From Candidatus Nanohaloarchaea archaeon (lineage in GTDB: Archaea > Nanohalarchaeota > Nanosalinia > Nanosalinales > Nanosalinaceae): a DNA stretch of 38,987 nucleotides. Positions 13,065-37,580 of this stretch are shown piece after piece (the stretch's first letter is position 1; every line of letters begins with the position of its first letter). Location of the stretch: contig JBDGSH010000075.1 of NCBI GenBank assembly GCA_042217665.1, positions 1 to 38,987 of the forward strand, written 5' to 3'. The notes below the pieces were generated by a model. The model ran no database searches. It saw only the letters and a list, made by a program, of their open reading frames with translations, and had not been told where the DNA came from. Position numbers and translations under genes: made by a program.

Positions 13065-13087
13065 GAACCGTTTCGTATATGTTCTGT

Positions 13088-17840: not shown

Positions 17841-20353
17841 AACGGTAAAACAGCCGACAACGGCAGAATTCCTGCTGTCTGAAGCGCGTACAACAGTATA
17901 ACGGTTTCTCCCAGCAACAGGATTATGAAAGGTATCTTCACCGACAGGTAATCCAGCTCGTACTTCTTGGTTATCAAACCGTAAACAATCAAAGCTGCAG
18001 TCCAGAGAATCGCTACAAGCGGCATCCTGTGTTTGGGAGGTATCAAGCCTTCCTGCGGAGTAATATCGATCTCTATATCGGAGAATGCGTAGGCGCCGTC
18101 GTTCGAGGAAACCACTAAAGTAGCTTCACAGCTAGCGGTGTCGTTATAGGCTTCAAACTCCATCTGAATCGATTTTGAGCCGTTTACACTGATCCTGTCT
18201 ATTGTTCCGGCCGAGAAATCTACGCAGTCCTCAGCGTTTTGAAGCCGTGCCTCGATCCCTTCCACCGGTCTCTTACCTGCGTTGGAGATAAGCACAGGTA
18301 TATCGGTTTCCTCAGTTTTCTGGATCTCTAAGGAACCTGGAGCTTCCTGTATCTCTATTTTTGGAACGTAGCTAGCTTTTTTAACCTCCAGTGTGAAGTA
18401 GTCAAGGTCTAACTGTCTTCCCTCGTAGTAACCTGAGACAGGAACCACGTAGGTTCCAGGATCCGTGTTTCTGGCCGGTCTTACGAATACTTCGCGTGTC
18501 ACGGTTTCGCCTACAGACAGGTTTCCTATCCGGGCGTTTCTGACCTCCCAGCTTTCTCTGAACTTGTCTATCATGGCTCTCAGTTCTATTCCCTGTAGCG
18601 AGGTATTTCCTACGTTGGTTACCTCTATCTCTGCGGCTTTGAAAACGCCTTGACGTGTTGTGTACTTGTCTTTTACAGGTTGAATGTTTATGCTTATCTC
18701 TGGTTCTGGCTTGGGTTCTGGCTTGGGTTCTGGTTCGGGTTCAGGTCTCGGCGTTGATCCTCTTGATGCGTTGTCTCCGGGTATTGACCTGTTGGATGTG
18801 AGGTTGCCTGAGCGGTTGGCTCCGCCTATTGAGTGGACGATTTCGAAGTTTCCGTAGAAGCTGAACTGTTCTATGAAGTCGTAGCTGTAGTTGCAGAGGA
18901 ATGTTTTGTTGCCAGTGTCTGCGCATCTGAGCGTGGTGTTGACGTAGTCCTTGTTGATTTTGAGCTGTGCGTATGTAGCGTTTTCTCCCGTGTCTTCGAT
19001 GTTTTGAATCTTAATTTTCTTGTCCTGTATTATGCTTCCTTCGTAGCCGCATTTCTCCGGTTTAAGCACGGAGTTCTCGGAGACGCAGGAGTAGTCGTAG
19101 TTTTTGGTTGAGGTAGCGTTAAAGAGGTATGCTGTGTACTCGGTGTCGTTAAGAGTTATCTCCGAACTGTAAGCTGTAGTACCGTTTCTCTGATTGTTTA
19201 TTGTTACGTTTGCGGTTTCTGTGAAGTTGGCCGTGGTTGTCTGCGCAGCTACGTAGTCCTGGCTGATCACAGTTTTGTTATGACAGAATAGGTCGGACTT
19301 GTTAGTGTCTCTGGTGCATTTGTAGCTGCTGTTCAACTCCTGAAGTTTTTTGCGTTTGTTCCTGACGCCTCCTGCCTCACAGGACGTGGATATACGGCTT
19401 CTACCGGTGTAGTTACCTATCTGGTACGTAGCTTTGAACAGCTCGAAGTAAGTTACTGCTTCACGGATTCTTACGTTTGGAAACTTTTCGCCTGGATAGC
19501 TCTGTATTACTTTTCCGATTTCTTCTCCTCTGCTCCAGGGATTGTCGCCTTCAAACGTTACGTCGAGGTAGTCGATGGTTATATTGGATTCTACGTTTCC
19601 TGAGTTCGATAAAATTTCCACGAATACTCCTGTCTTGTTTTGAACTATTTTTCCGTTTCCTGGAAGCAGGAAGTAGTCTAGCGTAGTGGAGCAGCTGGGC
19701 GCTACCTCTACCGTTACCTGAGTCGGATCTCTGACGTTGTATACCTGGAAGCTATGGTTTTCAAAATCCTTAAAGCCGTTGGAGTCTCTTGCTGTCACGT
19801 TGAAGCGGTATTCTGTTTTTTTCTCGGGTTTGAACTTTTTTTCAAATACTTGGAGGTTGTCCCTCTGTCTAACCTGTGAGGCTGTGAAGCTCTGGTTGCC
19901 TGACTCGTTGAGCGTTACTGTTTCTACGTTTTCCTGCGCGTCCAGGACTCTGATCTGTACTGTTACGTTTGAATTGATGTATGCCAGCAGAGGATGATTT
20001 ACTACGGATATTATACGTGGCTTGTCGCTTGCGATGTAAAAACTGCCGTCTAACAAACCATTTTGCTGGTTGAAGAGCGCGTAGCTGTATCTGCCCGGAT
20101 CTTGGATGTTTTGGAACTTGAAACTGATGTTTTGCTCTGCTTCTCTGGTCTGTCGAAATACAACGTCTTCTGTAGAGTTTTCTACCCGTAGCGTTACGTT
20201 TTCGGTTCCTGACAGGTTGGCTTTGAAGCTGAGGGTGTCGCCTGTCTCGAAGTATTTTTTCTGGTTGTCCTGGTTTGTAACCGTTATGTTTGATAGTGCG
20301 GCAGTGTTAGCCAGGAAGAAAAGCAGTGAGAGCGCTAGAACTGTTTTTTTCAT
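17837..20353 (-). CDS. Secreted Cys-containing multi-domain surface protein with PE/PK linker, CARDB/NEW3-like domains and two C-terminal TM helices
   Basis: Signal peptide MKKTVLALSLLFFLANTAA. Many N-X-S/T sequons. Linker PRPEPEPEPKPEPKPEPE. CARDB/NEW3-like segments (EIEVTNVGNTSLQGIELRA...LSVGETVTREVFV; IPVLISNAGKRPVEGIEARL). C-terminal TMs (PLVAILWTAALIVYGLI; IPFIILLLGETVILLYAL). The ATG directly abuts the upstream stop (TAAATG). Confidence 0.75.
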   Translation of the reverse strand: MKKTVLALSLLFFLANTAALSNITVTNQDNQKKYFETGDTLSFKANLSGTENVTLRVENSTEDVVFRQTREAEQNISFKFQNIQDPGRYSYALFNQQNGLLDGSFYIASDKPRIISVVNHPLLAYINSNVTVQIRVLDAQENVETVTLNESGNQSFTASQVRQRDNLQVFEKKFKPEKKTEYRFNVTARDSNGFKDFENHSFQVYNVRDPTQVTVEVAPSCSTTLDYFLLPGNGKIVQNKTGVFVEILSNSGNVESNITIDYLDVTFEGDNPWSRGEEIGKVIQSYPGEKFPNVRIREAVTYFELFKATYQIGNYTGRSRISTSCEAGGVRNKRKKLQELNSSYKCTRDTNKSDLFCHNKTVISQDYVAAQTTTANFTETANVTINNQRNGTTAYSSEITLNDTEYTAYLFNATSTKNYDYSCVSENSVLKPEKCGYEGSIIQDKKIKIQNIEDTGENATYAQLKINKDYVNTTLRCADTGNKTFLCNYSYDFIEQFSFYGNFEIVHSIGGANRSGNLTSNRSIPGDNASRGSTPRPEPEPEPKPEPKPEPEISINIQPVKDKYTTRQGVFKAAEIEVTNVGNTSLQGIELRAMIDKFRESWEVRNARIGNLSVGETVTREVFVRPARNTDPGTYVVPVSGYYEGRQLDLDYFTLEVKKASYVPKIEIQEAPGSLEIQKTEETDIPVLISNAGKRPVEGIEARLQNAEDCVDFSAGTIDRISVNGSKSIQMEFEAYNDTASCEATLVVSSNDGAYAFSDIEIDITPQEGLIPPKHRMPLVAILWTAALIVYGLITKKYELDYLSVKIPFIILLLGETVILLYALQTAGILPLSAVLPF
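18702..18749 (-). repeat. Four tandem copies of a 12-nt unit encoding the PE/PK linker
   Basis: Plus-strand units are ggttctggcttg, ggttctggcttg, ggttctggttcg, ggttcaggtctc. The first two are identical and the last two are degenerate. Confidence 0.8.
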
Positions 20354-21214
20354 TTAGATCACTCTCCAGAGGTAGATGACTGATGCCAGGAATATCAGAA
20401 GCATTACAAGAGTTTGTGGTCCTGGGAGAGCGGTGAAGTCGCCTGTTATGTTGTTGTCCGAGTTGTTGTTTGGTGTTTCCAGCTGTTGCGTGCCTCTGTC
20501 CTGGTTTTCTGCCGGTGCTCGCTGTTTTTCTTCTTTTTGCTGTTGTTCTACTGTTACGTTCGGGGTTCCTACTTCTGTATCGGTTTCTGCCGTAGCTTTT
20601 CCTCCGCCTCCTCCTGACGGCGCTATAGTGTTGACTGCTCCTCCGAACGCGTCTCTGACTGTTTCGGCAAAGTTTCCGACGGTTCCTGTGGCTTGGTCGA
20701 CGAAGGATTGGCTTGGTTGTTTTCCGAAGCTGAAGCCGTATGTTCTGACCTGTACTACGTCTTGGCGTGGGTCTACGTTTTCTGCGGAGTTGTTTTCCGG
20801 TGTTACTTGTTGTGCTTTGACTTTGACTCTGAAGTTCATGTTTTGAATGTCTTTGCTGCGTTCTGCTCTTATTTTTATTCTTGCTGTTTCTGTGTATTTT
20901 CCGTTTCCTCTGTAGAGCCAGTTTGTGTCTTCTTCAGGGTTTCTTGTTGTTTTTGATGGCGGCAGGATGAAGCTTTGGAAGCCTGAGCTGTATTCTTCCG
21001 GTATTTTGTATCTTACTGTTTCGCCTTGTTCTGTTTCCAGTGTCTGTAGCTCTATTTCGAGGTTTTCGTTGCCTGTGTTGATCATGTCGATGTAGAAGTT
21101 GGCTGTGCGGGAGTCGGTGGTTTTTGTTTTTTCGGAGGGCATGGTTCCGAATGATACGGCTGTGGCTCCTGTTATGAAGAGTACGAGTATTGCTGCTGTT
21201 GCCGTCTTCTTCAT
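20354..21214 (-). CDS. Secreted beta-sandwich protein with low-complexity stalk and extreme C-terminal TM anchor
   Basis: Signal peptide MKKTATAAILVLFITGATAVS. A beta-rich domain is followed by a G/Q/E/T-rich stalk (SGGGGGKATAETDTE...QQQKEEKQ...) and the C-terminal LPGPQTLVMLLIFLASVIYLWRVI. Confidence 0.7.
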   Translation of the reverse strand: MKKTATAAILVLFITGATAVSFGTMPSEKTKTTDSRTANFYIDMINTGNENLEIELQTLETEQGETVRYKIPEEYSSGFQSFILPPSKTTRNPEEDTNWLYRGNGKYTETARIKIRAERSKDIQNMNFRVKVKAQQVTPENNSAENVDPRQDVVQVRTYGFSFGKQPSQSFVDQATGTVGNFAETVRDAFGGAVNTIAPSGGGGGKATAETDTEVGTPNVTVEQQQKEEKQRAPAENQDRGTQQLETPNNNSDNNITGDFTALPGPQTLVMLLIFLASVIYLWRVI

Positions 21215-21221
21215 TTTGTAT

Positions 21222-24200
21222 CTAATTGGTGGTGTTCACCTTTATTGTTAAGGTTCCTGTGTAGGTGCCGTTGTAGTGGCCGAACGGTATTTCCTGCCAG
21301 AAGCACTGGTTGACGGTTTCTCCTGCCTGGAAGTTTTGGTCTATCTGTTCGAAGCTTCCTGTGAACTTGTTGCTGCCGCTGTAGCTGCATGTGGATCTGT
21401 AGCTCCATGACGTGTTTTCCGGTTCTATTATCTGGTTTGGCTGGTCTGTTCCGCCGACAAGTGAGAGTTTTGACATGTTCATCCATAGGCTTCCTGCGTT
21501 GGAGTCTTCGTCGAGTGAGACCGTGTATCCTTCGCTGTTTTTGGGCGCGCTAACTGTTTCGCCAGGGTAGCCCTGCGGGAAGTCTATTGCGGAGTAGTTT
21601 GTGTTTAAAAGCAGCAGTACGTCGATCGTGATTTTTCTGTTTACTGTGTGGTTCTTTTTGGCGTTTGTGCTGTTGGCTTTTACGTCGATCACGTGTTTTG
21701 AGTGTTCTGCTCCGGATGCGTTGACTTTCCACTGTACTGTGCAGTTTTCTCCCTGGTTGAGGCTGCATGTTTTCTTGTTTGTGTTAACCGTGTGTAGCGG
21801 GTTGCCTGTTTCGGGTACGAGGGTTTCTGGCGTGGTTCCTGTCCGGTTGTACCGCAGGTAGGTGTTTGCTGTGCCGCAGTCGGATTCAAGGCATTTTACT
21901 GTTGCGTTGGCTTTGAATGTCTTGTTCTGAGCTACTTTTGTGTCTGCTGCAGGGTTTTGAAGTGTGACGTTGAGTTTTCCTTTCGTTAAAAGCTTTATTG
22001 AGGTGTTTGCTTCTGTTTTTTCTGGCTGGATCTGTCTTGTGGTGTTGGCTGTGATGCTGCATGAGGCGGTGTAGTTGCCTTTTTGGTAGCTGTCTGTGTT
22101 CCATGTTAGTTGGGCTTCGCCTGTTTTATCTGTCTGGTTTTGGCCGAGGTAGAAGGTCTGTGTGGAGTTTTTGAGCCGGAATTCTACGTTGTAGTTTTTG
22201 ACGGGGTCGTTGTCCAGTGTTTTGTTGACGCTGCATCTGGTTGTTGCCTGTGCTCCTGAGATTTCTCCTGTCGGCGCGGTTATTGTTATGTTGGCTTTTT
22301 CCCAGATTTCCAGTGTCTGTGTTGTGGTGGTGTTGGTGTTGCCGTAGCTGTCGTTTGCGTGTATTTTCCAGCCTAGCGTCTGGTTTTGGTTGTCGCCTAT
22401 TGATGCTGTGAACTTGGAGACGTGCTGTGATCCTTCCAGGTTTTGTGGTGGTGCTAGCGACGAGTTTTGGAATGTTCCTGTCTGGTTTGTTGCCAGTTCT
22501 GCGGTTCCCAGCGTGTTCTGGTCTGTCCAGTTGGCTGATAGATTGATTTTTCCGCCTGTGTAGATTCTGTCGGTTTCCGAGCTGTTTCTTGTGGCGGTCA
22601 GGTTGTTCCAGTTTGGCGGGTTGGCGTCGATGTAGTATTCCAGTGTTGTGGTGTTGAGGTTTCCGGCTGTGTCGTTGGCGTATATTTTGACGGTGTGTGT
22701 TCCCGGTGTCCAGTTTGTCGTGTTGATTTTGAACGGTGAGGTCTGGGTCTGGTTGGTTCCGCTGTCGACGCTGTATTTGAGTGTGTCGAAGTGGTTTTCG
22801 GGGTCGTTTACGGCGAATGTTATGTTTTCTCCCTGTCCTATGTAGGATTTGTTGGCGGGTTTGAGGTTGTTGATTTTTGGTGGCTGGTTGTCTAGAGGTA
22901 TTACTACGTCGTCCTGGTCCCCGTAGCCTGAGGTCTGTTCTACCGTGGTGCTGCCGCCGTTGTATTCTATGAGTCCTCTGACTGTTGTGTTTCCTGTGCC
23001 TGTTAGCTGGAACCGGGTTGTGAAGGTTTGGAAGCCTCCTGCGGGACAGGTCTGGGAGCTGGCGACGTTCCAGTTAGGGTTTTCAGGTGTCTCTGTATAG
23101 ATGATGTTTACTGTGTCGTCGCTTGGCGTGGTTTCCCAGCAGTGTGCTTTTACCGATACCTCTACGGTGTGGTTTTGGGAGAATGTGGAGGCGTTCAGGT
23201 CTGTTATGTTGATTGCTTCGATTGATTCTGCTGAGTTGTAGGTTCCTGAGGTGCCGTCGCTGGCGGAGTCGACCGTGTTCGGGGAGTTGGGTTCGTTGGT
23301 TCCTATGTTGTCTTTTGAGATGATGAATGTTTCGTTGATGCGGCACGGCGATCTTCCTTCTGTGCATATCGGTGTGGTCCAGTAAGTGGAGTATTTTTCT
23401 GCGGGTGTTACCGCTGTGAACTTCCGGGTTTTTGAGTTCCAGTTGCCGTACCGGTCCTGGCAGGAGAACTTGATCGTGTGTTGGCGGTATTCGATGTTGT
23501 GGAGCTGGGTGGTGAAGCTGGTGTTGGTCTGTTTGGTCATGGAGACGTTTTCCCCATTGTCTAGACTGTAGCGGCATGCCTGTGTTTTCTCGTCGAGTGC
23601 GACTTTGGCTTGTATGTCGTTGGTCTGGTAGGTTCTGTTTTCCGGCGACTGTATGGTTATCTGCGGCCCTATACTGTCGACGAAGAAGTATTCTGTCTCT
23701 GAGTCCAGGTTTCCGGCTTCGTCTTCGGCGTAGAGTGTCAGGTGGTTGTCGCCCTGTCCGACGCTTATTGTGGTGTTTTCTGTTATGGTGATGTTTTTGT
23801 AGTTCTTGGTGGAGAAGAACGTCTTGTTGAGGTTGGGTTCGTCTACGGTGTAGTTGATCGGTATATTGTTGGTTGTGTAGGTTTTGTTCTCCGGTTTTGT
23901 GAGGTTGAGCCGTGGTTTTGTTTCGTCGACTATGAAACTGTATTTTTTGGTGTTGGAGTTGCCCTGTGTGTCGTTGGCGTAAATCTGTACTTCTATGGGT
24001 TCCTCCTGGCTGTGTGACAGGTTGATGTCGTAGCTTCCAATAAAGTCTGTGCTGTTCTGGTTTCCGTTGATGCTGTAGCTGACGTAATCAAGCTCCGGGT
24101 CTTTGACTGTGAAGTTGAGCGTCGTGTTACTTCTTACTGCGGTGTTGTTTTCCGGTCTGTCGAGTGTTATCAGTGGTGGTTTGTCGTCGACGATGTCGAA

Positions 24201-27200
24201 TCGGTAGGTTTTTGAGGTGGTTTCGCCCAGTGTGTCGTTGGCGTAGAGTTTGACGGTGTTGGTGCCGAGCGTCCATGCTGAAGTGTTTATGTCGTAGCTT
24301 CCGATGAAGTCTGTGGTGTTGGCGTTGCCGTTGTGGCTGTACTTGACCGTGTCAAGGTTGAGGTCGGTGACTGTGTAGTTGAGTACAGTGCCTCTCTCCA
24401 CCTGTGTGGCGTTGCCAGGTGTGTCAAGCGTTAGTTGGGGGGGCTGGGTGTCTACCTGGAACTTGACTGTAGAGGTGTTGGTGTTTCCGTGGAGATCTTC
24501 TGAGAAGATTTTGAGAGTGTTGTTGCCTTCCGCTGCCTGTATTTTTTCTCTGCTTCTGTAGATGTTCCTGCGTTCCGGCTGGAGAGAGTAGCCTAGTTTC
24601 AGGTTTGCTGCTTTCCTGTTTCCTATCTCTTCGTGTTCCATGTCAGTCCGGTTTCCGGCGTCCCAGTCCAGCGCGTTACCTATGTAGATTATGTTTGACT
24701 GTTTGAGTCTGAGCTCTTTTATCACCGGTGAACGGGAGATGCTTGGCGAGCTGGCGTTGATCCTTAGTTTGAATCTTCTCGAATCTGTTGATAGGCCGTT
24801 GACTGCGTAGCTTCCTGAGCCGTCGAGCTGAATTGTGTTGCTTGTTTCTTCCGTCTTCAAGTCGTTGTCCGGGTCGGAGAGAACGGTTACGTTGACTTCT
24901 CCTGCGTTCAATGCTACGTCCGTCTCCAACTGGAGGTTTGAAACATTTCTGTCGCTTGTGAATGCTTCCCAGTAGGTTTTCATGTTTCCTGAGGTTTTTT
25001 CCGACAGTTGCTGGATTTCTGTCTGTGTTAGTGCGGAGCTGTAGAACTGTACTTCGTCTATTTTTCCGTTGAAGAAGTCTGAGGTTCCGCTGCTGTCGTA
25101 TTCTTGGCCTATGCTGATTATATCCCGGGGCTGAATCTCGGTCGTGGTTGTAGCCGGGAAGTCGCCGCCTGTGTCTTCTCGGCCGTTTACATAAGCTCTT
25201 AAAGTGTTGGAGGATGCGTTGAGGGTGATTGCTACGTGTGTCCATGTGTTGTCGGGTATTGAAAGCGATCCTTCTAATCCTCCGGCGTTGGCGTCGTTTA
25301 CGTAGATGTGGTTGTCGGTGGCGGAGTTGTTGAGTGTGTAGAGGATTAGGCGGTTGCTGTAGTCGTCTTGGTTGGCTCCTATTACCGTGCCGGTGTTTTC
25401 TGTGTTTATCCATGCTGTCCATGTGAAGCTGGATTCGTTGATTTTTTCTGAAACGTTTTTTCCGAGGTTTATGTAGTCGTTGGCGCCGTCAAAGCTGTAG
25501 GCGGAGCTGTTGAGTATTCCATCTGTTTTGCGTGTTACGTTGCCGTTGGGCTGTGCTGTCAGGTTTTGAACAGCTTCTTGTGTATAGTTCTTATCGGTAT
25601 CAAGTGTGTAGTATGCTTGGAGTGAGGGCCATGGTTTTTGGGCGGGTTTTTTCTGGTAGAGTGTTTCTGTGTCTCCGTTGAGTGTGTACTTGACTGTTTT
25701 CAGGAACTGGTCGCCGACTGTCAGGTTTCTCCAGATGGTCTGGCTGTGGTAGAGCCGGTTTTGTGGCGATGTGGTGTTTTGGAAGGGTTGGGTGACTTCC
25801 CAGTAGAATTCTCTGGTTGACCTGTTTTTGGCGCCTACTATGTCTTCTGCGTAGACTGTTACATTGTGTTTGCCTTCCTGGGCTACCGGTATTGAGGTGT
25901 TGGGGCTGAATCGGTACTTGCTTCTTCCGTCTACCTGGAAGAACCATTTTTCGATCGCGTCGGTTGATGAGACGTTGAGGTAGGTGGGGTGGTTGGTGCG
26001 TTTTTCCGGCGCTGCAAAGTAGATTGGTGGCGGTGCTTCGTCTTCGTTGGCGGCTTTGAATGTTTTTACCTTGGTTGCGTTGCACTGGTTTTTGGAGTCG
26101 CAGAAGTAGATTTTCCACGCAACTGTTTCTCCGTTGACTGACTTGTTCTGCCATGTGAAGTTGGTCCGGTTCCAGGTTCCTGCTGAACCGATTTTTCTGG
26201 GTGAGCCGTAGCGTGGTGTATGGTTCTGCCAGGATCCGGTTTCGTTGGTGGCTAGTACGGCTTTTGTCAGGTTTAGCTGGTCGAATCCTTCTGCTGAGAG
26301 TTCTATGCTTCCGGCTGCCGCGACAAGGTCTTTTGACTGTTGCTGGTTTCTCCATTTCGGCGGTCTGTCGGTTTCGAAGACCTTGATCGTTCTGTTGTCA
26401 GGTGCGAAGCTGCTGACGCCGTCATGGTCGGTTACTTTGATGTTCCATTTCAGGGTTGACGGCAGGTTGATGTCGGTGAAGTCGAGGTTTATACTGTTTT
26501 CTGTGTTGTTTTGAATGTTTGTCGTTTGTTTTACGCGGCGCCAGTTGGATTCAGGGTCTTTGTATGTTATGTTGAGCTGTTTGAGAAGCGGTGTCTCGGT
26601 TCTGTTGCCTTTGAAGTCTGCTCTTATTTTGAGGGCTTTGGATTTCGGTAGCTGTGTTATTTTGTCGGCGTAGTTCCATGTTCCGGAACTGTTTTCTGCG
26701 TAGCTTATGTTTAAGTCTGTTTTGTCTGGCTCTGTAATTTCTGTGTTTGTTTTGTTCCAGTAGACTGTTTCTCCCAGGTTGATTGTTTTTTCGTAGCGTC
26801 CTTCTGTCAGGTACTGTTGTTGGAACTGTTCTACGCCGGCTTTGAATGTTTTCACCGGGTTTCTGATTCTTCTGGCGGCGTCTGTGACGTTGGCGATTTC
26901 AGGGTTTTGAGAGCTCTGGAGATGGTATTTGATGTTGAAGCTTTGAGAGGTTATCTTTGGCGTTGTTCCGTTGTATCCTATTTCCATTCCTACTGTTGAT
27001 GGTGCTGTGAACCTTATTGCGTCGGCTTTTGTAGCGTTCCATGCTGCTGCGAACACAGGTTTTGATGCGTTGTTGTAGAACCCTATGTAGCCTATTTCTT
27101 CTATCAGTCCGTCGTCCAGAACCTGTTCTCCGCCTGATGTGTAGTTTACAAGTTTTTTCCAGAGGTAGGGTCCGCCTCTTGTTCCTATCCAGTCTCCTAC

Positions 27201-29807: not shown

Positions 29808-32800
29808 TGGCTTTGAAGTAGAGTTTTCCTTGGTAGTTTGCGGATTTTAGGCCTTCGGGGATGTCGATCCAGTAGTATGTGGTTACGTTGGTTCCTGAGG
29901 GAATGTTTGATGCGAGCCGGCTGTAACTGTTTAGAAGTGTGTTTTCCTGGTTTAAGCTGTTTTGTTTGGCGTAGCTGATGTTTTGTGCGGGGATTGTGTA
30001 GTTGCCCCAGCCGCCGGTTGTGAGGTTGGTGCCTCTTATGTAGAGCCGGTCTACTGTGACGCTGTTCTCCGGTACTGTGATGTTGTAGAGGGATTGGTTG
30101 TTTCCTTTTGCGGACTTGTTTTGCTGGCCGGGTGCCAAGGTGCCGAAGCTTACCTTATTGAACCCTAGGTCGATCATCATGGCCTGGTTGACGGTTATTT
30201 TTCTGTCCGGCGAGTCTGATGGCTTGGCCCGAGTGGAGGAGGTGTTTACATCGATCAGGTGTTCTGTTCCCAGGTCTGCGGTGGCGTTGACCTGCCAGGT
30301 CTTGGTACAGTTTTCGGATGTGAGCGCGCCGCAAGTCTTTAAATTGGTTTCGTTGAGGTGGAACGGTGTTCCTGAGCCTTCAGGTATCAGTGTGTCGGCT
30401 TCTCCGGTTTCGTTGTATCTTATAGTGGCGTTTGTTTCTCCGCAGACCCCTTCCCGGCATTGAATGGTTGCGTTGGCGGTGAAGACCTCTCCTTTTGGAA
30501 CCACGGTGTTTTCCGGCGGTTCGTTTATCTTGATATCTATGAAACCGGTTTTTGAGATGTTTAGTTTATGTTGGTCGGTGGAGCCTGAGTTCTGTGAGCT
30601 GTCTTCGACTCTGAACTTTAGATCCAGTTGCTGTTTTATGTTGACTGTCGTATTTACTATGTAGCGGGCTGTCATTGTTGAACCGGTTGTTAGTTCGCCG
30701 CCTAGGCTTGTGTTCCATGTAATGTTTTTGTTTTGGAGCGTTCCTCCTTCTCTGATTATTCCTGAGATGTTGTACCAGATTTTTTCTACGTTCCAGGTCT
30801 TGTTGAGTCCTGAGTGTTTTAGAATGTCTTCTGATTGGATCTGCCAGGCTGTGTCGCCGTCGTTTCTGATTTGGAACTCTAACCTGTATTCTGCATTTTC
30901 TTTCTGTTGGCGGATGTTGTAGGTTTTGTTGAGTCCGGAGGCTATGAGTGTTCCTCCTGTCTCCTGTTTTTGCTGGGAGAGATCGGTGACGTTGTAGATT
31001 TCTATATCGGTGATGTTGGGTACCGGTGTTCCTTCTGAGAGGCCGTATGCATCGAATTTTGTGACGTTGAAGGTGAAGTGTGTTGAGTTTTCGCGGTGTG
31101 GGTAGGCTGAGGTCTTGTTTTTCTGCCAGTTGGAGCATTTTCTGGTCGTGTAGTTCCAGTCCGTGCAGTGTAAAATAATGTTAGGGCTTATTCCCATTTT
31201 TGGCAGCTTGAGCTGCGCTTTTCCGAAGTTTAGACCTGTCTCATTGAGTGCGTAAACTGTTTCGATGGTTTCAACGTTTTCCAGGTTTTTTGCGTTGTAG
31301 TTTTGAACTAGCTGTTGTTGGATGTTTGTTGTTTGCTGTGTTGAGAAATTGTAGAGTGTGAAGGCTGCTTTCTTGCTTCCTACCTGGGCTTCCGTGGTGA
31401 TACTGTAGTTTCTGTTCTGTGGGAGCTGTATGCTTTTCTGTTGGCTGATTTTGTAGTTGTAGATTGTTTTTCCGTTGGCTTTGATTGTTACGTTGCTGTC
31501 TTTGAGCGTTTCTCCTGTTTCCTGTGTCAGGTTTACTTTTAGATCGTTGCCTTTTACGACTTCGAATTCTCCGGTTTTTGTTACGTTGGTGTTGGCTGAG
31601 GAGTCTTTGACCCACACTCTCCACGCCACTGTTGTTCCTTCCGAGATTGATTTGTTTTTCCAGTTGAAGCTGATGTTCAGGGGTTCTGTGGCGTCTAGGT
31701 TTTTGGGAGAGCTGTAGCTTGTCTTGTTTTGCCAGGAGCCGGTTTCGTTGGTGGCTAACGTTGCTTCTTTTAGTCTTACGTTGTCTTCTGCTTCAAGCTG
31801 TAGTTCTGCGCCTTTTTGTTGAAGTACGTAGGTTTTTCCGTTCTGTGTATATCCGGAGGCTTTTGGAACGGTATCTGTGTTGGTTATTATTGGCGGTTGG
31901 GTGTCTTCTGTGATTTTGAATGTGTCGTGGCTGGTTGAGGATTTGAAACGGGGAGAGGAGGCTACTGAGACAGTTGAGTAGTTGCCTGGACTGTATTTTC
32001 TGGTGTCGAACGTTAGGTTTGTTTTTTGGGTGTCTGTGACGACGGTTTTGGTTGTTTTGAGGGTCTGTGTTTTTCCTGTTTCTGTGTTGGTGTTTTCGGG
32101 GTAGGAGACGTTTACTGCGGTCCAGAACAGGTTGACGAAGCCGTCTTCCCCGTATCCGGTTTCGTCGTAGTAGCCCTGGAGCTTGGTCTGGTCGATGTTG
32201 TTCCATGTCAGCTCCGGGTATTCGTTTGTGATGTTGATCCATGGGCTGGAGGTTTTCTGGACGTTTGAGCTGCCCTGGATATCTGTAGTGTATCCGTTGC
32301 CTGTGCTGTGGCGGAGCATGTAGTTGGCTTCCCAGCCGGCGAAGTTGGTGACAGAGTACCTGTAGCGGATCCAGGCACCTTGGATTTTACCGGTGTCGAA
32401 GTTTGAGACGAAGTTTTGGCCGTGAGCCGCTCCATCGATCGGGCTTCCTCCCTGTGAGTTCCCTATTGCGGTTGCGTTGGTGTCGTCGCGGCCTATCAAC
32501 GCGTTTAAGTCGCTGACAACTCCTGTGTCTTTGACTGCGTCTCCTGCGTAGAAGACATGGGTTTCAGGTATGTTGAGACTATAGCCGGGTTTTGCTGCGG
32601 ACGGATTATCGTAGTATGCCATGAAACGTGTGTCTTTTGTTGTTCCTTTGTTAGTATCGACCAGGAAGCTGGCCTGGCACCATGTTGCGTTGTTGCCTGA
32701 GTCTATCTGGCTTGGTACTTCTGTTGTGGAGGCGTTGACTGTTTTTACTATTCTTATTTCTCTGCATGTATCTATCTGGTTGTTTAGACCTGTTATGTTG

Positions 32801-35800
32801 ACGCGTGTGACCAGGTTTGAGGTGTTGGAGCTTTCAGGTTTGTTTATTGTGACCGGTTTTCTGTTGCGCCATTCTGTGTTCCACCAGGGCTTGGAGGTGT
32901 TGCCTTGGATCAGGCTTGTCTCTACTGATGCGTCTCTATGGTTTCCGTACTTGTCTCTGGTTCTCAACACTGTTTTAACTTTTTCTCCGTATTTGTAGCT
33001 TTCTCTGGATATATTGGTGTTTGAAACTATCTTTGTGATCTCTCTGGCTGTTACACTGTACTGGAGAGTTGTATTTTTGTTTCCAGCTGCGTCGCTGCAT
33101 TTGATATTGAAGTTGTACTGGTCTCTGGAGAGGCTTGGCGTAAAGCTCTGTGTGTTTGTTTTTAAAACTGTGTTGTCGATTTCTGTGATGCTTCCGTTGA
33201 GGTAGAGGGAGCATCTGTCGATTCCGGATGCGTCGCTTACTTCGTAGCTGATGGTTGGCTCCAGACTGACTATTGACCGGTTTTCAGGTGCTGTTACCTG
33301 GATTGAGGGCGGTGTTGTATCGTTTACCTGTAGCTGGAGCGTCTTCGATGCTGAGGTGTAGTTTCTGTTTCCGGGTATTTTCGCCTTTACTTCATAGTTT
33401 CCGGGCGTCTTTATTTCTCTGATCTGTTCTAGATGCGCTGTGCCTGAGGCTATTTCTCTGCTGTCAAGGTAAAGTTGGATGGTGCCTTGGTCAGGGACTT
33501 CTGCTTCAGCTGTTATATTGATTTTATTGTCTTCGTTCATTGAGTAGCTGGTTGAAGAGCCGTTGATCAACAGGTTGAGCTGTGCCTGTCTTTTTTCCAC
33601 CGTGTATGTTTTCCAGGAGGTCGAGTTCTGGTTGCCTTCATTGTCTTCTGCGTGCCAACGGTACCTGTACGTTCCCGCCGGCAAGTCTTGAACGCTGAAG
33701 CTGTAGGTATCTGTTAGAGAAGTTATGGAAGTGTTTTCCATGTTTCCTGTGAAGTTGGATTCGAACTTGACTGTTTCAACATTGTAATTGTCTTTCCAGG
33801 TTGCGTTGAAGCTGTATCGGCGTCCTGACCGGTATGTAACCGGGGAAACCGGTTTCTCTGATTTCTGGGTCCAGTAGGGCGGTTGAGTGTCGACTTTGAT
33901 CGTGTAGTTTTTGTCGTTGAATGCTTTGTTGCCGGAAAGATCCTGACACTGTATGTTCCACGTGTAGACTCCATCCTGAACTGTTTTCGTAAAACTGTTA
34001 GTCTGATGTGTTCGCGGCTGTTGATCGGTTTCGCTTTGTGTGAAGCTGCCGGAGAAGTTTCCGTAGAGTGAGCAGGTGTCCAGGTTTCGGTCCTGTGGCG
34101 TGTATTGGAAGTTTAGCTGGCTGGAGCTGAGTGAGGCTTCGTCTCTCGGTGTTTCCAGGCTGATCCGGGGTTTTGTGGTGTCTACTGTGAAGTTGGCGGT
34201 TGTGGAGTTGCCTGTGTTGGTTTGAGTGCTGTTGTCGGTGCATGATACGCTCCAGCTGGTTTTACCTTCCGGAACGGTTGTTTGGAACGTGTTAGGCTCC
34301 AGGTTTTGTACGTTGTTGTCGGTCTGGTTTTGTGTTCCGTTGAGACGGAGGCTGCAGCTTTGGATTCCTGTTGCGTCGCTTGGCGTATAGTTGAATTCTA
34401 CGTTTCTCTGTGAGAGGTATTTGTTGACCGGCGAGTTTAGTTCTACAAGTGGAGGGTCCTCATCGTCCGCTTGAACATCCAGGTGGTAGGTCTTTGAGGT
34501 GTTTGTGTATCCGTTGATGTCCTGGCAGCTGAAGCTCCATGTGTGGTTGCCGTCCTGAACGAGTGAGGTGAACTGGAAGGAGCTCTGACCGGTGACTTGT
34601 TTCGTGTCCCTTTTTTGACCATCTAGGTAGAGGCTGCAGGTATCTACTTTCGATATTTTGTCGGAGGCAGTGCCGTAGAAGTCTATATTGTTTGTATTGG
34701 CGTAGAAGCTTTCGTTGGGAGGTCCGTAGATCTGTACTGACGGCTTGGACAGGTCTACTCCGGTCGAGTAATTTTTTTGTGGTTTGAAAGTGTTTCCAGC
34801 AGTGTCTTCACATTGAATGTTCCAAACGTAGTTGCCTTCAGGCGCTGTCTGCTGGAAGCTGTTTTCTCCGTTAGTTACTGTTCCCTCAATCATTTCCTGT
34901 TCATAGCTTCCTGAAAAGTTGGTGTAAAGCGTGCAGCTTTGCAGATGTGGATCATTTACCGTATAGTTGAAGGTTATGGAGGTCTTTGTGAAGTAGGAGT
35001 TGTTTTCGGGCGATTGAATTGATAAATCGGGTGCTGCGTTGTCGGTGGTGTATCTGTAGGTTGGTGTGGATGTTTTTGCTCCGAATCTGTCGTATGCTGT
35101 TATTTTCCAGAAGTATTGTTGGTTTTCTTTCAGCAGCTGAGTGATTTCCTTATCCGTGTCGCTGATAGACGTGGTTTTGAAGCGTTGAGGTGTTGGAAAG
35201 CTTTTTTGCTGGTCGAAAAGTATCGTGTAGTTCTTGAAATGCGGTTCCACGGTTTCAGTCCATACAATAGTAGGTGTTACGTCCTGTGAAACTGTTTGAT
35301 TTGATGGAACCATCAATGAGAACTGTTGAGGCGGTGATTTAGTGACGTTGAAGCTTAACGCTGGATCTTCAACCCTTGTGTTGTTGTACTGGTCCGTGGC
35401 GGCGATCTGTGTGATGTTGTAGATGCCTGTCTGAAGCGTGTCGTCGAATGCCAGTCTGTAGCCGGATTCTGTTGTTTTTTCCAGTTTGAAGCTTTTTTTG
35501 GTTCCGTTCGGATATTTTACCGTGGTGTTAACGTTTTTTACAGTGTTTTCGTCGTTTACTGTTACGTTCAGCTTAACTGTTTCTGTGTGGTTGATTTCTG
35601 TAGTGTTCAGCTGCGGGTTCTGGATTTCTGGCTTTCTTCCGATGTCGAGACAGCTTCCTTCGCTGTAGTAACCGGACTCGGATGTTCCATCGGAGGCTTT
35701 GGCTCTTAGCTGGACACATTCCTGTTCTTCAAGGTTTTGAACGTTCCATGTAATGTCCCCTCCTTCGCTGTGAGATCCTGCTGAAACCCATTTTTCGCCG

Positions 35801-37035
35801 TCTATATTGAGTTTTAGCTGTGAAATGTTGATTCTATCTATGCCTCCGACGTCTCCATCAAAGTTAACCCCTTTCAGCCTTATTTTCTGGTTTTCAGCGT
35901 TTTTCCATGCGTCCAGGATGCCTGAATTGTTGATTTTTAGTTTGGAGGTTTTCTGATCGGTGCTTCTGATGTTTTCGCCGTATTTCTGTGGCAGGGAGAG
36001 GTTTCCCAGCTTCTGCCAGTCTACTCCGTTCCAGGCTTCAATCTTTATTGACGGTGGCGCGGTCTCTGTACCTGAACCTAGAGAGCTGTATTCATTGATT
36101 GTTGCATTGAGCTTTGCTTCATCGATACGTGTGTAGTCTGACTCTGTGAAGTTGTAGTAGGTGTAGCTTGTTTCTTTGTTTTCTACAGGCTGTGGTGCGT
36201 CGTATTTTACTTCCATTTCCGCCCAGTGTAGGTACACGTGGCCTTCTGCACTCCAGCTTGACTCATCGTACATAGCCTGGAGCTTTGTGTTGTTTAAACT
36301 GTTCCAGCTCAGTGAGGAGTACTCTGAGGTGATGTTAAACCATTTGGATGTTGTTAGGGGGATTGAGGTCTGTCCGTAAGGCGTTGATCCTGAGATGTCT
36401 TCGGTGTATCCGCTGCCTGTTGAGTGTCTGAATCGGTATGCTCCCTCCCAGTCCCGTATTTCTCCAACTGAGTACCTGTAACGGATTCTAACTGACTTAA
36501 TGTTTGAGCCGCTGATCGAGGAAGGTATAAATCCTGTTGCATGGGCTGCATCGACCTGTGCTGCGTTTCCGTTATCGTTTCCTGTATCTGCTTTGGTTGA
36601 GTCGTCTTTTCCTAGCATTCCCTGAAGATTTACTGCGTTGCCCTGGTCTAGAACTGCTTCTCTGGCGTGGAAGGATTCTGTTACCTCTCTCTCGTTTAAA
36701 TGAACTGTTTTGGATATTTCTGTGTTGTTGGTGTATGTAGAGTTTTTTTCCAGCGATGTTTCCAGGTGGTATGTTATTGGATCGTTTTCCGGGTCTGTTG
36801 CTCCGGATGCTTCTAACGTAACGTTATTTGAAACTGTTTTTTGGCAGATACCGTTGTCGCAGTCGATGTTAGTTGGTATGCTTGGCGGGGATCCTGCTGC
36901 AATTGTTAGTAGGGTTGTTGAGACAGCTATAATCAGGAAAGCGGTGAGACGGGAGGCTTTAGGCGGATTTGCCTGGTTTATCTGGTTTTGCTTTTGTCTC
37001 TTTTTTTCCGTCATCTTTTTTGTTCGACCTCTCAC
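29794..37035 (-). CDS. Giant secreted surface protein (2413 aa): duplicated novel module, FN3/Ig-like domains, Cys-pair Ig-like repeat array, DUF2341-like, shared C-terminal module
   Basis: A single uninterrupted ORF. The basic N-terminus is followed by anchor/signal LTAFLIIAVSTTLLTIAAGS. The track start is GTG 37035, with GGAG 6 nt upstream; ATG 37014 is an alternative. Domain motifs are listed as sub-features. Confidence 0.9.
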   Translation of the reverse strand: MRGRTKKMTEKKRQKQNQINQANPPKASRLTAFLIIAVSTTLLTIAAGSPPSIPTNIDCDNGICQKTVSNNVTLEASGATDPENDPITYHLETSLEKNSTYTNNTEISKTVHLNEREVTESFHAREAVLDQGNAVNLQGMLGKDDSTKADTGNDNGNAAQVDAAHATGFIPSSISGSNIKSVRIRYRYSVGEIRDWEGAYRFRHSTGSGYTEDISGSTPYGQTSIPLTTSKWFNITSEYSSLSWNSLNNTKLQAMYDESSWSAEGHVYLHWAEMEVKYDAPQPVENKETSYTYYNFTESDYTRIDEAKLNATINEYSSLGSGTETAPPSIKIEAWNGVDWQKLGNLSLPQKYGENIRSTDQKTSKLKINNSGILDAWKNAENQKIRLKGVNFDGDVGGIDRINISQLKLNIDGEKWVSAGSHSEGGDITWNVQNLEEQECVQLRAKASDGTSESGYYSEGSCLDIGRKPEIQNPQLNTTEINHTETVKLNVTVNDENTVKNVNTTVKYPNGTKKSFKLEKTTESGYRLAFDDTLQTGIYNITQIAATDQYNNTRVEDPALSFNVTKSPPQQFSLMVPSNQTVSQDVTPTIVWTETVEPHFKNYTILFDQQKSFPTPQRFKTTSISDTDKEITQLLKENQQYFWKITAYDRFGAKTSTPTYRYTTDNAAPDLSIQSPENNSYFTKTSITFNYTVNDPHLQSCTLYTNFSGSYEQEMIEGTVTNGENSFQQTAPEGNYVWNIQCEDTAGNTFKPQKNYSTGVDLSKPSVQIYGPPNESFYANTNNIDFYGTASDKISKVDTCSLYLDGQKRDTKQVTGQSSFQFTSLVQDGNHTWSFSCQDINGYTNTSKTYHLDVQADDEDPPLVELNSPVNKYLSQRNVEFNYTPSDATGIQSCSLRLNGTQNQTDNNVQNLEPNTFQTTVPEGKTSWSVSCTDNSTQTNTGNSTTANFTVDTTKPRISLETPRDEASLSSSQLNFQYTPQDRNLDTCSLYGNFSGSFTQSETDQQPRTHQTNSFTKTVQDGVYTWNIQCQDLSGNKAFNDKNYTIKVDTQPPYWTQKSEKPVSPVTYRSGRRYSFNATWKDNYNVETVKFESNFTGNMENTSITSLTDTYSFSVQDLPAGTYRYRWHAEDNEGNQNSTSWKTYTVEKRQAQLNLLINGSSTSYSMNEDNKINITAEAEVPDQGTIQLYLDSREIASGTAHLEQIREIKTPGNYEVKAKIPGNRNYTSASKTLQLQVNDTTPPSIQVTAPENRSIVSLEPTISYEVSDASGIDRCSLYLNGSITEIDNTVLKTNTQSFTPSLSRDQYNFNIKCSDAAGNKNTTLQYSVTAREITKIVSNTNISRESYKYGEKVKTVLRTRDKYGNHRDASVETSLIQGNTSKPWWNTEWRNRKPVTINKPESSNTSNLVTRVNITGLNNQIDTCREIRIVKTVNASTTEVPSQIDSGNNATWCQASFLVDTNKGTTKDTRFMAYYDNPSAAKPGYSLNIPETHVFYAGDAVKDTGVVSDLNALIGRDDTNATAIGNSQGGSPIDGAAHGQNFVSNFDTGKIQGAWIRYRYSVTNFAGWEANYMLRHSTGNGYTTDIQGSSNVQKTSSPWINITNEYPELTWNNIDQTKLQGYYDETGYGEDGFVNLFWTAVNVSYPENTNTETGKTQTLKTTKTVVTDTQKTNLTFDTRKYSPGNYSTVSVASSPRFKSSTSHDTFKITEDTQPPIITNTDTVPKASGYTQNGKTYVLQQKGAELQLEAEDNVRLKEATLATNETGSWQNKTSYSSPKNLDATEPLNISFNWKNKSISEGTTVAWRVWVKDSSANTNVTKTGEFEVVKGNDLKVNLTQETGETLKDSNVTIKANGKTIYNYKISQQKSIQLPQNRNYSITTEAQVGSKKAAFTLYNFSTQQTTNIQQQLVQNYNAKNLENVETIETVYALNETGLNFGKAQLKLPKMGISPNIILHCTDWNYTTRKCSNWQKNKTSAYPHRENSTHFTFNVTKFDAYGLSEGTPVPNITDIEIYNVTDLSQQKQETGGTLIASGLNKTYNIRQQKENAEYRLEFQIRNDGDTAWQIQSEDILKHSGLNKTWNVEKIWYNISGIIREGGTLQNKNITWNTSLGGELTTGSTMTARYIVNTTVNIKQQLDLKFRVEDSSQNSGSTDQHKLNISKTGFIDIKINEPPENTVVPKGEVFTANATIQCREGVCGETNATIRYNETGEADTLIPEGSGTPFHLNETNLKTCGALTSENCTKTWQVNATADLGTEHLIDVNTSSTRAKPSDSPDRKITVNQAMMIDLGFNKVSFGTLAPGQQNKSAKGNNQSLYNITVPENSVTVDRLYIRGTNLTTGGWGNYTIPAQNISYAKQNSLNQENTLLNSYSRLASNIPSGTNVTTYYWIDIPEGLKSANYQGKLYFKANETQ
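29797..30549 (-). other. C-terminal module shared with the 2861-aa protein
   Basis: See the alignment given for 21225-21983. The four Cys and the RYN, W(Q/K)VNA and H(L/V)IDV blocks are conserved. Both proteins end in a Y-G-(K/T)-L-x-(F/I)-K-(A/V)-N beta strand. Confidence 0.7.
32098..32556 (-). other. Unrecognised ~155-aa module, copy 2 (aa ~1494-1646)
   Basis: ...LNALIGRDDTNATAIGN...IDGAAHGQNF...IQGAWIRYRYSVTNFAGWEANYMLRHSTGNGYTTDIQGS...TSSPWINITNEYPELTWNNIDQTKLQGYYDET...GFVNLFWTAVNVSY. Checked by translating 32310-32380 directly. Confidence 0.6.
32596..32892 (-). other. DUF2341-like domain (aa ~1382-1480)
   Basis: KPWWNTEWRNRKPVTINKPE...LVTRVNITGL...CREIRIVKTVNASTTEVPSQID...WCQASFLVDT...DTRFMAYYDNPSA. 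Confidence 0.6.
33880..35037 (-). repeat. Array of four tandem ~95-aa Ig-like repeats, each with a conserved Cys pair (aa ~667-1052); a fifth copy lies at aa ~1241-1330 (33046-33315)
   Basis: Each unit reads (K/A)P.(L/V/I)S(I/L)..P.N......(I/V/L).F.YT..D...(Q/D).C(T/S)L(Y/R).N.....Q........N.F......(D/E)G...W.(I/V).C.D..GN. Examples of the Cys pairs: SCTLY...WNIQCEDTAGN, TCSLYLDG...WSFSCQDINGY, SCSLRLNG...WSVSCTDNS, TCSLYGNF...WNIQCQDLSGN, RCSLYLNG...FNIKCSDAAGN. Confidence 0.75.
36199..36672 (-). other. Unrecognised ~155-aa module, copy 1 (aa ~122-279)
   Basis: ...LQGMLGKDDSTKA..GN...VDAAHATGF...IKSVRIRYRYSVGEIRDWEGAYRFRHSTGSGYTEDISGS...TSKWFNITSEYSSLSWNSLNNTKLQAMYDES...GHVYLHWAEMEVKY. Confidence 0.6.
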
Positions 37036-37129: not shown

Positions 37130-37558
37130 CTACTTTAGGATTTCCGGGTCGTGGAGGATTGTGGCGCCGGCGACGATTCCGAGGATTGAGAGAAGGGTTA
37201 TCCATTGATAGATTTTTGAGCCAGATCTGAGGCCCTCTTCCACTTCTTCTAGATTTTCTGTGGCGTTCTGTGCTGTTCTGAATGCCTCCGCCGCTGTTAG
37301 GTAACGTGGCGCCAGGTTTGTGCCTTCTACGCTTTCCAGTGCTTCTAGACTTTCCTGGAAGTCTTGGCCTTGTATTATTGTCGATGCTTTGTTGAGTTCT
37401 GTGTTTGCAGCGTCTAGTTCTTTGGCTGCTGACTGTAGTTCGAGTACTGTGGGAACTGTTACCGCTAGAATTGCTGCTGATGCGACTAGAAGTGTTTTGC
37501 CCAGTTCTTTTCTGTCGATTCCGTACTGTTTCTCCAGTTTCTGTAGTAAGCGTTTCAC
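37130..37558 (-). CDS. Small membrane protein (two TM helices flanking a helical loop), unknown function
   Basis: Only the C-terminal 142 codons of track ORF 37130..37978 look coding (VKRLLQKLEKQYGIDRKELGKTLLVASAAILAVTVPTVL...KIYQWITLLSILGIVAGATIL). The start is GTG 37558. AGAAAG-TTTAAA (BRE-like plus TATA, complement of 37581-37592) lies ~25 nt upstream. The longer N-terminus is antisense to a better plus-strand gene. Confidence 0.55.
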   Translation of the reverse strand: MKRLLQKLEKQYGIDRKELGKTLLVASAAILAVTVPTVLELQSAAKELDAANTELNKASTIIQGQDFQESLEALESVEGTNLAPRYLTAAEAFRTAQNATENLEEVEEGLRSGSKIYQWITLLSILGIVAGATILHDPEILK

Positions 37559-37580
37559 ACCGGTGTTTTTGGCTTGGTGG

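Follow-up and report, generated by a model that had tools for sequence, protein, structure and literature searches.

What are the two giant genes, A and B, that follow each other on the minus strand of contig JBDGSH010000075.1 from a Candidatus Nanohaloarchaea archaeon (GCA_042217665.1), and did one arise from the other in that genome? We analysed a 38,987-nucleotide (nt) stretch of this contig, referred to below as the window, in which a preliminary description had picked out the pair as tandem, coupled mosaic paralogs of 2413 and 2861 amino acids (aa) that duplication followed by domain shuffling had turned into two complementary adhesin-like proteins. Both genes are indeed uninterrupted minus-strand open reading frames (ORFs) in the ORF list of the window, and the protein database has independent gene calls for both (A with 2406 aa, from the ATG at 37014, and B with 2861 aa). 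Our reading, to which we assign a probability of roughly 60%, is that a conserved cell-envelope operon carries A and B as its two variable "cargo" genes and that they encode modular surface proteins for attachment to a host or to polysaccharide; as to their origin, the sequences point to an old split between A and B, followed by lineage-specific expansion, in place of a duplication in this genome.

The family-defining element of both proteins is a C-terminal domain (CTD) of 250 aa. A profile built from the CTDs of A and B was searched against 1.84 billion representative proteins (50%-identity representatives) and matched at least 609 clusters at E ≤ 1e-3, 165 of them at E ≤ 1e-30, in proteins of 222 to 7373 aa, with A and B themselves scoring 464 and 475 bits. 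The CTD reaches the last residue in A and in B, and none of the 150 near-full CTDs is followed by more than 9 residues, 29 of these proteins having 2000 aa or more; across hundreds of DPANN protein clusters the domain is obligately C-terminal. Its four cysteines, which the preliminary description had already noticed in the module common to A and B, are invariant across the family. Subdomain 1, the four-Cys immunoglobulin (Ig)-like half, occurs as an internal repeat in 41 of 195 instances, and subdomain 2 closes the protein in 157 of 158. The consensus of the very end is Y-x-G-x-L-x-F/I-K-A/V-N-x-T-x (A, ...GKLYFKANETQ; B, ...GTLTIKVNTTN) and includes an N-x-T sequon, found within the final five residues of nearly all CTDs (KANET, KVNTT, KANST and others; window sites 29797-29811 and 21225-21239). 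Proteins made of a signal peptide and a CTD only also exist (P0107 and P0163), and in locus L007 (12529-20909; JGI 3300010232, Ga0136447_1000018) a 302-aa gene of this kind is followed, 1.6 kb downstream, by the start of a gene with a call of 10,823 aa.

Among the CTD proteins returned with precomputed annotation none carried a Pfam family, and the CTD has no Pfam model in spite of its at least 609 clusters; it would serve well as a marker in catalogues of the surface proteins of DPANN. Its AlphaFold model (predicted local distance difference test score, pLDDT, 89.9) shows two tandem β-sandwiches, for which Foldseek searches against PDB and BFVD returned generic tandem Ig-like matches only (template modelling score, TM-score, ≤ 0.39) and no functional lead. 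A PDB sequence search with the CTD gave nothing useful, tblastn against phage genomes gave 0 matches, and a metagenome rescan recovered only further contigs of Ca. Nanohaloarchaeum antarcticus (Ca. Nha. antarcticus) and weak subdomain-1 matches.

The position of gene A bears on its identity. A 451-aa CTD protein (P0197) is encoded at ~235.35-236.71 kb of JGI contig Ga0309993_1030, which belongs to the Nha-Ce genome of Ca. Nha. antarcticus (Hamm et al., PMC6642349, Methods), and the window is collinear with this contig over 14 genes, with the single 451-aa protein at the position of A and B. Window genes are labelled here by their length in aa (e.g., w286 for the 286-aa gene). The correspondences comprise the DUF7343 regulator (w298, 41% identity), the MJ0538-like protein (w134, 57%), a ~140-aa protein with two transmembrane (TM) helices followed by the CTD gene (the window two-TM protein and A/B), a 246-aa anchored protein (w286), a 529-aa NPCBM_assoc protein (w838, 43%), a 181-aa protein (w171), a 512-aa acidic protein (w453), the VWA, DUF58 and MoxR trio (49, 49 and 62%), a 348-aa protein (w285/w378) and a 362-aa protein (w361). 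The last 418 aa of A (1996-2413) correspond to residues 30-451 of the 451-aa protein (43% identity, E 5e-113); of B, only the CTD can be aligned with it. A is thus the orthologue, by position, of this small conserved protein, with ~1950 aa inserted between signal peptide and conserved core.

The same gene order, with one 448-aa gene at this point, was found in a Nanohaloarchaea metagenome-assembled genome (MAG; L006) by a genome scan with a narrow CTD alignment. As tested by gene-by-gene BLAST against L003, L018, L019 and L020 and by ORF order in L006, the locus runs DUF7343 / MJ0538 / two-TM protein / CTD gene(s) / ~250-aa anchored protein / CARDB-like protein / ... / VWA-DUF58-MoxR; the 286-aa protein has its counterpart as a conserved partner in all five, and the 838-aa protein is 37-43% identical to its orthologues.

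In line with an old origin of the pair, A and B are not each other's closest relatives. Among 150 CTDs, that of B ranks 119th of 149 for A, with 118 closer, and that of A ranks 61st for B. The nearest relatives of the B CTD are other giant proteins with the extra Cys pair, which is found in only 5-6% of CTDs, and the nearest of all (P0048) comes from a Ca. Nanohaloarchaea MAG whose locus, L018, shows synteny to the window, with MoxR at 70% identity, and is independently assembled and divergent. There, an A-like gene of 1096 aa is followed by a B-like gene of 2548 aa with the identical 14-nt overlap. Such pairs recur in L019, where an A-like gene of 1968 aa accompanies a B-like gene of 3917 aa with two LamG domains, and in L020, where an A-like gene of at least 810 aa, truncated by the contig end, accompanies a B-like gene of 3560 aa. 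In an identity matrix of 12 CTDs, A-type CTDs (4 Cys) share 38-48% with one another and with those of the single-copy 450-aa proteins, B-type CTDs (6 Cys) share 40-50% with one another, and A-type and B-type share 25-36%. By these ranks and by the separate A-type and B-type groups across genomes, the two CTD types are two old orthologous groups, i.e., old paralogs. From one genome to another, the alignment of A and of B is confined to the C-terminal 400-600 aa; the parts before it differ in length and in the modules that they contain.

The preliminary description had proposed duplication and subsequent shuffling of domains, with two complementary adhesin-like proteins in fixed stoichiometry as the outcome. 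Read as a recent tandem event in this genome, this would find support in the overlap of the genes, in shared modules that stand in the same order and include an identical ATNETGSWQN string, and in a 75-nt match at 72% identity between A and B at the DNA level (repeat family D6). We nevertheless consider it very improbable, given the CTD ranks, the separation of the two types over four genomes, the extra Cys pair of the B-type and the positional orthology of A to a single 450-aa gene. The ATNETGSWQN string is itself no mark of recent duplication, because it is a family-wide signature (the ATNETG motif occurs in 24 of the 207 proteins at hand), and the corresponding module of B is closer to that of P0003 (48% identity) than to that of A (38%). 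That A and B are mosaic paralogs is confirmed by these data, which do not support a duplication in this genome; the related loci also provide the check by independent assemblies for which the preliminary description had called.

The start of B lies within the last codons of A, as first described, in a closely packed row of genes with one orientation: the junction reads ccaATGaaacacagTAAaac, and the ATG of B sits 14 nt within the 3' end of A. It is a sensible start, being the earliest possible one in its ORF and directly followed by a charged n-region (K-H-S-K) and a 20-residue hydrophobic stretch. In both L018 (gcaaATGcaacgacaTAG) and the window (gccaATGaaacacagTAA), the AT of this ATG is provided by the Asn codon of the K-A-N-x-T end, and so of the terminal sequon. 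Adjacent, overlapping ORFs in different frames, in a group where single giant genes of such size are known (PMC6642349, PMC10266531), could also suggest that one ~5270-aa gene was cut into the halves A and B, whether by a frameshift from sequencing or assembly or by a pseudogenising mutation. This is effectively refuted: A closes with a complete CTD, a domain that is C-terminal in all 150 homologues examined, B opens at the junction with a charged n-region and hydrophobic signal sequence of its own, and the two-gene layout, with a stop after K-A-N-x-T, is found in three independent assemblies. Collapse of the assembly across repeats is likewise unlikely, because the DNA repeats in these 15.8 kb reach at most 99 nt in length and at most 79% identity; an exact look-up of protein A found no record, and no identical independent assembly is known. 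As no Shine-Dalgarno motif precedes the start of B, any coupling would go by termination-reinitiation. With a same-strand stop/start overlap and no such motif, A and B have the sequence features of a translationally coupled pair, and termination-reinitiation alone does not guarantee a 1:1 ratio of A to B.

Upstream of the CTD, A and B consist almost wholly of β-sandwich modules, a mosaic that we resolved by segment-wise BLAST and Pfam. In A, the signal sequence is followed by a first copy of a novel module (NM1, 100-279), Ig domains, four Cys-pair Big_7/Big_13 repeats (665-1050) and a fifth (1235-1330), a WNTEW..RK module (1385-1480), a second copy of the novel module (NM2, 1477-1646), an ATNETG Ig module (1705-1827), the conserved pre-CTD region and the CTD (2164-2413). 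In B, the order is signal, LamG (120-268), WWNRDW..RK module (~450-570), CBM_3 (633-700), ATNETG Ig module (1140-1253), a second LamG (~1440-1600), four Ig repeats (1760-2130), a second, ATNQTG Ig module (2388-2500) and the CTD (2610-2861). BLASTP of A against B aligns the CTDs (A2164-2412 and B2610-2860; 32% identity, E 3e-33, 130 bits), the ATNETGSWQN Ig-like modules (A1705-1827 and B1140-1253; 38%, E 5e-15, 69.7 bits) and, over a long stretch, the Ig repeats (E 2e-9, 51.2 bits). Since the best of 400 composition-preserving shuffles of B (200 global, 200 in 50-aa blocks) scored 32 bits against A, this similarity is not merely one of composition. The peptides quoted in the preliminary description are present in the translations, and the differing centres that it noted are borne out. 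B has two stretches of Laminin_G_3 (PF13385; 164.8 bits against a cutoff of 27.6), a family without Pfam match in A, and a CBM_3 (PF00942; 41.4 bits against a cutoff of 22.4, and 43.8 bits on a sub-fragment), a cellulose/chitin-type binding module and the sole Pfam match at E ≤ 10 in five unannotated segments. The TafC Tat-fimbrial family (NF052521) matches B in its LamG region only, with 72 bits against an equivalog cutoff of 410.

The weakest of the shared modules first described is the one labelled DUF2341-like. Neither A nor B has a Pfam match to DUF2341 (PF10102), even at E ≤ 10, and the pairwise BLAST score between the two modules (33.9 bits, E 4e-4) barely exceeds the shuffle maximum. 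The label is supported by profile-profile comparison (hhalign) only: A-type against B-type gives a probability of 95.7 (E 1e-8), A-type against true PF10102 regions 96.6 (E 5e-10), and B-type against DUF2341 0.2, with a B-type profile of 2 sequences. For the novel module we found no relatives in Pfam, PDB or metagenomes (250 metagenome pattern matches, 0 confirmed), a PDB sequence search with the DUF2341-like and NM region gave nothing useful, and the AlphaFold model of A 1385-1650, from an alignment of 2 sequences, was unusable (pLDDT 41.5). As whole proteins, A and B are without close relatives: the best database match of A is 35% identical over 50% of its length, and that of B covers 12%. 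The closest full-length relative of A is ACFL1B_02385, a 4114-aa protein from a Nanoarchaeota MAG (L001 4648-16992, GCA_042569805.1), in which a block homologous to A 569-1499 is present twice in tandem and the CTD is absent; its gene, too, has large genes for surface proteins as overlapping neighbours.

Both proteins have their own N-terminal signal sequence and lack a C-terminal TM helix, as read from the translations and as in their relatives, and the orthologues of A carry canonical AXA signal peptides. A contains 95 and B 123 N-x-S/T sequons, each with 22 Cys, and both are T/N/S-rich. Strand asymmetry is very strong across 21000-37000 (plus-strand AT skew about -0.45, GC skew about +0.2) and exceeds that of the rest of the window, the coding strand of A and B being A- and C-rich; this probably reflects T/N/S/K/Q-rich codon usage. 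Inspection of the N-termini showed no G/A cleavage motif of the type IV pilin/class III kind, and this reading of the signals was rejected, the relatives having AXA-type Sec signals. At the C-termini there is no PGF-CTERM/archaeosortase-type or other TM sorting signal, neither as a hydrophobic stretch nor as an NCBIfam match.

In the function that we propose, the operon would run from the small two-TM protein through A, B and the 286-aa C-terminally anchored protein to the 838-aa CARDB-like membrane protein. Ribosomes terminating on A would re-initiate 14 nt upstream and translate B, tying the synthesis of B to that of A, not necessarily at 1:1. A and B would be exported by Sec, heavily N-glycosylated and disulfide-bonded, and may form long fibrils held at the envelope by the CTD, which could dock to the S-layer or to co-encoded membrane-anchored partners; alternatively, A and B may assemble with each other through it. 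The fast-evolving, lectin-like N-terminal modules (two LamG, CBM3, DUF2341-like and two NM) would bind host-cell glycans or polysaccharide and so set the specificity of attachment.

Several points weigh against this proposal. The main uncertainty is polarity, as uncleaved N-terminal signal anchors would make the CTD the distal tip and not the anchor, a choice that the generic fold matches of the model (TM-score ≤ 0.39) do not decide. Neither Pfam nor NCBIfam reveals a glycoside hydrolase, another catalytic domain or a known anchoring motif in A or B, and the junction is not fixed in relatives, the genes being ~4 nt apart in L020 and B having an uncertain TTG start in L019, albeit tight in both. 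The placement of the organism, most probably a nanohaloarchaeon-type DPANN, is by synteny, in a window without marker genes whose proteins are 30-70% identical to those of the syntenic relatives and less acidic than those of Ca. Nha. antarcticus. Finally, localisation, glycosylation, binding and coupling, and with them adhesion, CTD anchoring and stoichiometry, are predictions from sequence.

In a rival reading, A and B would not be host adhesins but structural proteins of the envelope (S-layer-associated, matrix or sheath) or secreted polysaccharide-capturing proteins that serve nutrition, which we regard as unlikely, if far less so than a recent duplication. The locus is kept with envelope-type genes (CARDB/NPCBM_assoc membrane proteins and MoxR-DUF58-VWA), the best, albeit generic, PDB fold match of the CTD is to RbmA, a matrix protein of biofilms, nanohaloarchaea in culture are members of consortia that degrade polysaccharides (PMC7443923, PMC10266531), and the binding type of CBM_3 would suit such a role. 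However, structural proteins of the envelope are usually conserved in length, and here the N-terminal 500-2400 aa vary even among relatives, for which reason determinants of interaction specificity fit better than a structural role; nor was a glycoside hydrolase or other catalytic domain detected. On the side of attachment, a more far-reaching and tentative idea, which we would hold as possible but doubtful, is that the CTD is a hitherto undescribed envelope-docking or sorting domain of cluster-2 DPANN, an archaeal counterpart of the CTD of the type IX secretion system (T9SS), that the operon is a dedicated attachment apparatus in which A-type and B-type CTDs co-assemble at the cell surface, and that the region between signal and CTD is the insertion site, open to any module, that turns the 450-aa core into host-specific adhesins of several thousand residues.

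The features discussed are collected in Table 1.

Table 1. Positions in the window of genes A and B, their modules and the neighbouring genes of the locus
Feature	Position	Strand	Description
Gene A	29794..37035	-	Predicted secreted modular surface protein with A-type CTD; 2413 aa from GTG 37035 or 2406 aa from ATG 37014
Gene B	21222..29807	-	Predicted secreted modular surface protein with B-type CTD; 2861 aa, ATG start
A stop (TAA)/B start (ATG) overlap	29794..29807	-	14 nt, ATGaaacacagTAA
A-type CTD	29797..30546	-	Two tandem β-sandwiches, 4 invariant Cys, terminal K-A-N-E-T-Q
B-type CTD	21225..21980	-	6 Cys: 4 invariant and an extra pair
Conserved core of A (1996-2413)	29797..31050	-	Orthologue of the whole mature 451-aa Ca. 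Nha. antarcticus protein
A N-terminus	36886..37035	-	Basic n-region and 19-aa hydrophobic stretch; signal peptide or signal anchor, read from translation
NM1 of A	36199..36738	-	40-46% identical to NM2
Four Cys-pair Big_7/Big_13 Ig-like repeats of A	33886..35043	-	Pfam and internal BLAST
Fifth Cys-pair Ig-like repeat of A	33046-33333	-	Pfam and internal BLAST
DUF2341-like module of A	32596..32883	-	hhalign against true DUF2341
NM2 of A	32098..32607	-	Internal duplicate of NM1, iE 1e-35
ATNETGSWQN Ig-like module of A	31555..31923	-	BLAST
LamG (Laminin_G_3) domain 1 of B	29004..29450	-	Pfam E 2e-48, 2 stretches
DUF2341-like module of B	28098..28460	-	hhalign against A-type module
CBM_3 of B	27708..27911	-	Pfam E 2e-10
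ATNETGSWQN Ig-like module of B	26049..26390	-	BLAST
LamG domain 2 of B	~25008-25490	-	Internal BLAST
Four Ig-like repeats of B	23418..24530	-	Up to 47% identical mutually
Second, diverged Ig-like module copy of B (ATNQTGTFQN)	22308-22646	-	BLAST
286-aa co-operonic protein	20354..21214	-	Signal peptide, β domain, polar linker, C-terminal TM anchor; begins 7 nt past the B stop
838-aa co-operonic surface protein	17837..20353	-	NPCBM_assoc/CARDB-like domains, PEPK linker, C-terminal TM helices; start abuts the stop of the 286-aa gene
~140-aa two-TM protein upstream of A	37130..37558	-	Genuine part of an over-extended 282-aa ORF
MJ0538-like gene	37637-38041	+	Divergent; bounds the conserved locus
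Membrane-bound DUF7343 winged-helix regulator	38065-38961	+	Bounds the conserved locus
MoxR AAA+/DUF58/VWA trio	13079..15914	+	Opposite end of the syntenic block

The 282-aa minus-strand ORF upstream of A (37130-37978) is over-extended, since only its last ~140 aa, from GTG 37558, match the conserved two-TM protein, and its 5' half overlaps the real MJ0538-like gene on the plus strand. Downstream, a small gene with a signal peptide and a C-terminal TM helix follows the CTD gene at every locus examined, Aenigmatarchaeota included. In L005 and L008 (Aenigmatarchaeota) and in L004, the CTD locus lies beside a ParA/MinD-type ATPase and a ~800-aa MG2/CarboxypepD_reg protein, whose window homologues are w259 (ParA/MinD-like) and w886 (MG2). 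Because homologues of w259 and w886 adjoin CTD genes elsewhere, the window has the look of an island of cell-envelope genes that cluster-2 DPANN have in common. In a comparison of window 4882-10704 with L005 and L008, homologues of w259, w886, w361 and w285/w378 cluster around the Aenigmatarchaeota CTD gene, which suggests a multi-gene envelope module common to DPANN phyla.

Other neighbours have features of their own. The MG2/CarboxypepD_reg/NPCBM_assoc surface protein w886 (5682-8342, minus strand) has an RGG-rich stretch after its C-terminal TM helix and, at the extreme C-terminus (~5685-5760), a C2H2 zinc finger (VCGECGESFDSSAALRIHKQNSH), which in a surface protein would lie on the cytoplasmic side; the same TM and C2H2 tail ends a 525-aa, otherwise unrelated-looking NPCBM_assoc protein in L004 (561-2138). 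The secreted proteins w378 (10854-11990, plus strand) and w285 (12154-13011, plus strand) are tandem paralogs present in all syntenic loci, and their starts and C-terminal G-x-L-x-V-L-A-x-x ends look like CTD subdomain 2; homology to it is unsupported (hhalign probability 1%, E 0.023). A Peptidase_A24 gene, resembling prepilin/preflagellin peptidases, lies at 1331-2293 (minus strand), and inspection showed pilin-type signal peptides neither in A and B nor in the genes around them. Ca. Nha. antarcticus has type IV pilus and coiled-coil loci (PMC11291902), which are distinct from that of A and B.

How do A and B compare with known systems? All nanohaloarchaea have organism-specific, large, N-glycosylated LamG proteins that were predicted to form a host-specific attachment system (La Cono et al., PMC7443923), and operons of LamG, PKD and adhesin-like genes fill ~6% of the genome according to a 2023 study (PMC10266531). 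By synteny, the LamG/PKD surface proteins of Ca. Nanohalobium constans LC1Nh and Ca. Nanohalococcus occultus (SVXNc_0801-0831) belong to the same lineage as A and B, and those of both organisms resemble them in being large, organism-specific and operonic, with a Sec signal, many sequons, LamG and Ig/PKD-type modules and a predicted role in host attachment (PMC7443923, PMC10266531). The cited parts of these two papers and of PMC6642349 make no mention of the CTD, the A-type/B-type pairing, the 14-nt overlap, the 450-aa core or this locus. The SPEARE or giant membrane-anchored proteins of the same phylum (NAR1_1133, SVXNc_0300), proposed as host-interaction devices, are likewise giant and Ig-rich, with LamG and an extracytoplasmic bulk (PMC6642349, PMC10266531). 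They differ in a C-terminal TM helix and a cytoplasmic VirB4/TraG-like ATPase, earlier read as "restriction"; A and B end in an apparently extracellular CTD, have no Pfam or NCBIfam match to such an ATPase/"restriction" domain and, lacking both elements, are not of the SPEARE type.

Further parallels are looser. The best full-length database matches of B are LamG/DUF2341 proteins, a combination known from giants of Patescibacteria/CPR (candidate phyla radiation), and cover only 5-13% of it, and the WNTxWxxRK module of A is a putative distant DUF2341 relative without a Pfam-level match. DUF2341 proteins are also encoded in methanococcal type IV pilus loci (PMC4858521); unlike there, genes for a pilus ATPase or platform are absent from the surroundings of A and B, with only the prepilin-peptidase-like gene at a distance. 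A β-sandwich that ends secreted proteins of otherwise very different size and domain content, which would be the signature of a sorting or attachment module, is shared with the T9SS CTD of Bacteroidota, as a functional analogy only. The T9SS CTD is bacterial, has ~80-100 aa, and is cleaved and replaced by a lipid anchor, whereas that of A and B is archaeal, two-lobed and 250 aa long with 4 Cys, and neither homology nor processing machinery was identified. Termination-reinitiation coupling at overlapping archaeal gene pairs has reportedly been studied in Haloferax volcanii; A and B would resemble such pairs in strand, stop/start overlap and lack of a Shine-Dalgarno motif, and differ in an overlap of 14 nt, characterised pairs having mostly 1 or 4.

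A and B thus fit the already described large, strain-specific, N-glycosylated LamG/Ig surface proteins of nanohaloarchaea, and a giant Ig/LamG surface gene pair in such an organism is expected, not surprising. The extra interest lies in an unannotated, obligately C-terminal domain, a conserved overlapping pair and a cultivable organism with a minimal locus. Nanohaloarchaea and other DPANN need physical attachment to their hosts. The locus offers a handle on the molecules behind host specificity, because its variable part, which is 450 aa in the single protein of Ca. Nha. antarcticus and 1100-3900 aa in the pairs elsewhere, lies between an invariant signal peptide and an invariant CTD; and as Ca. 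Nha. antarcticus is cultivated, with proteomic data, its small orthologue and the neighbours could be localised directly.

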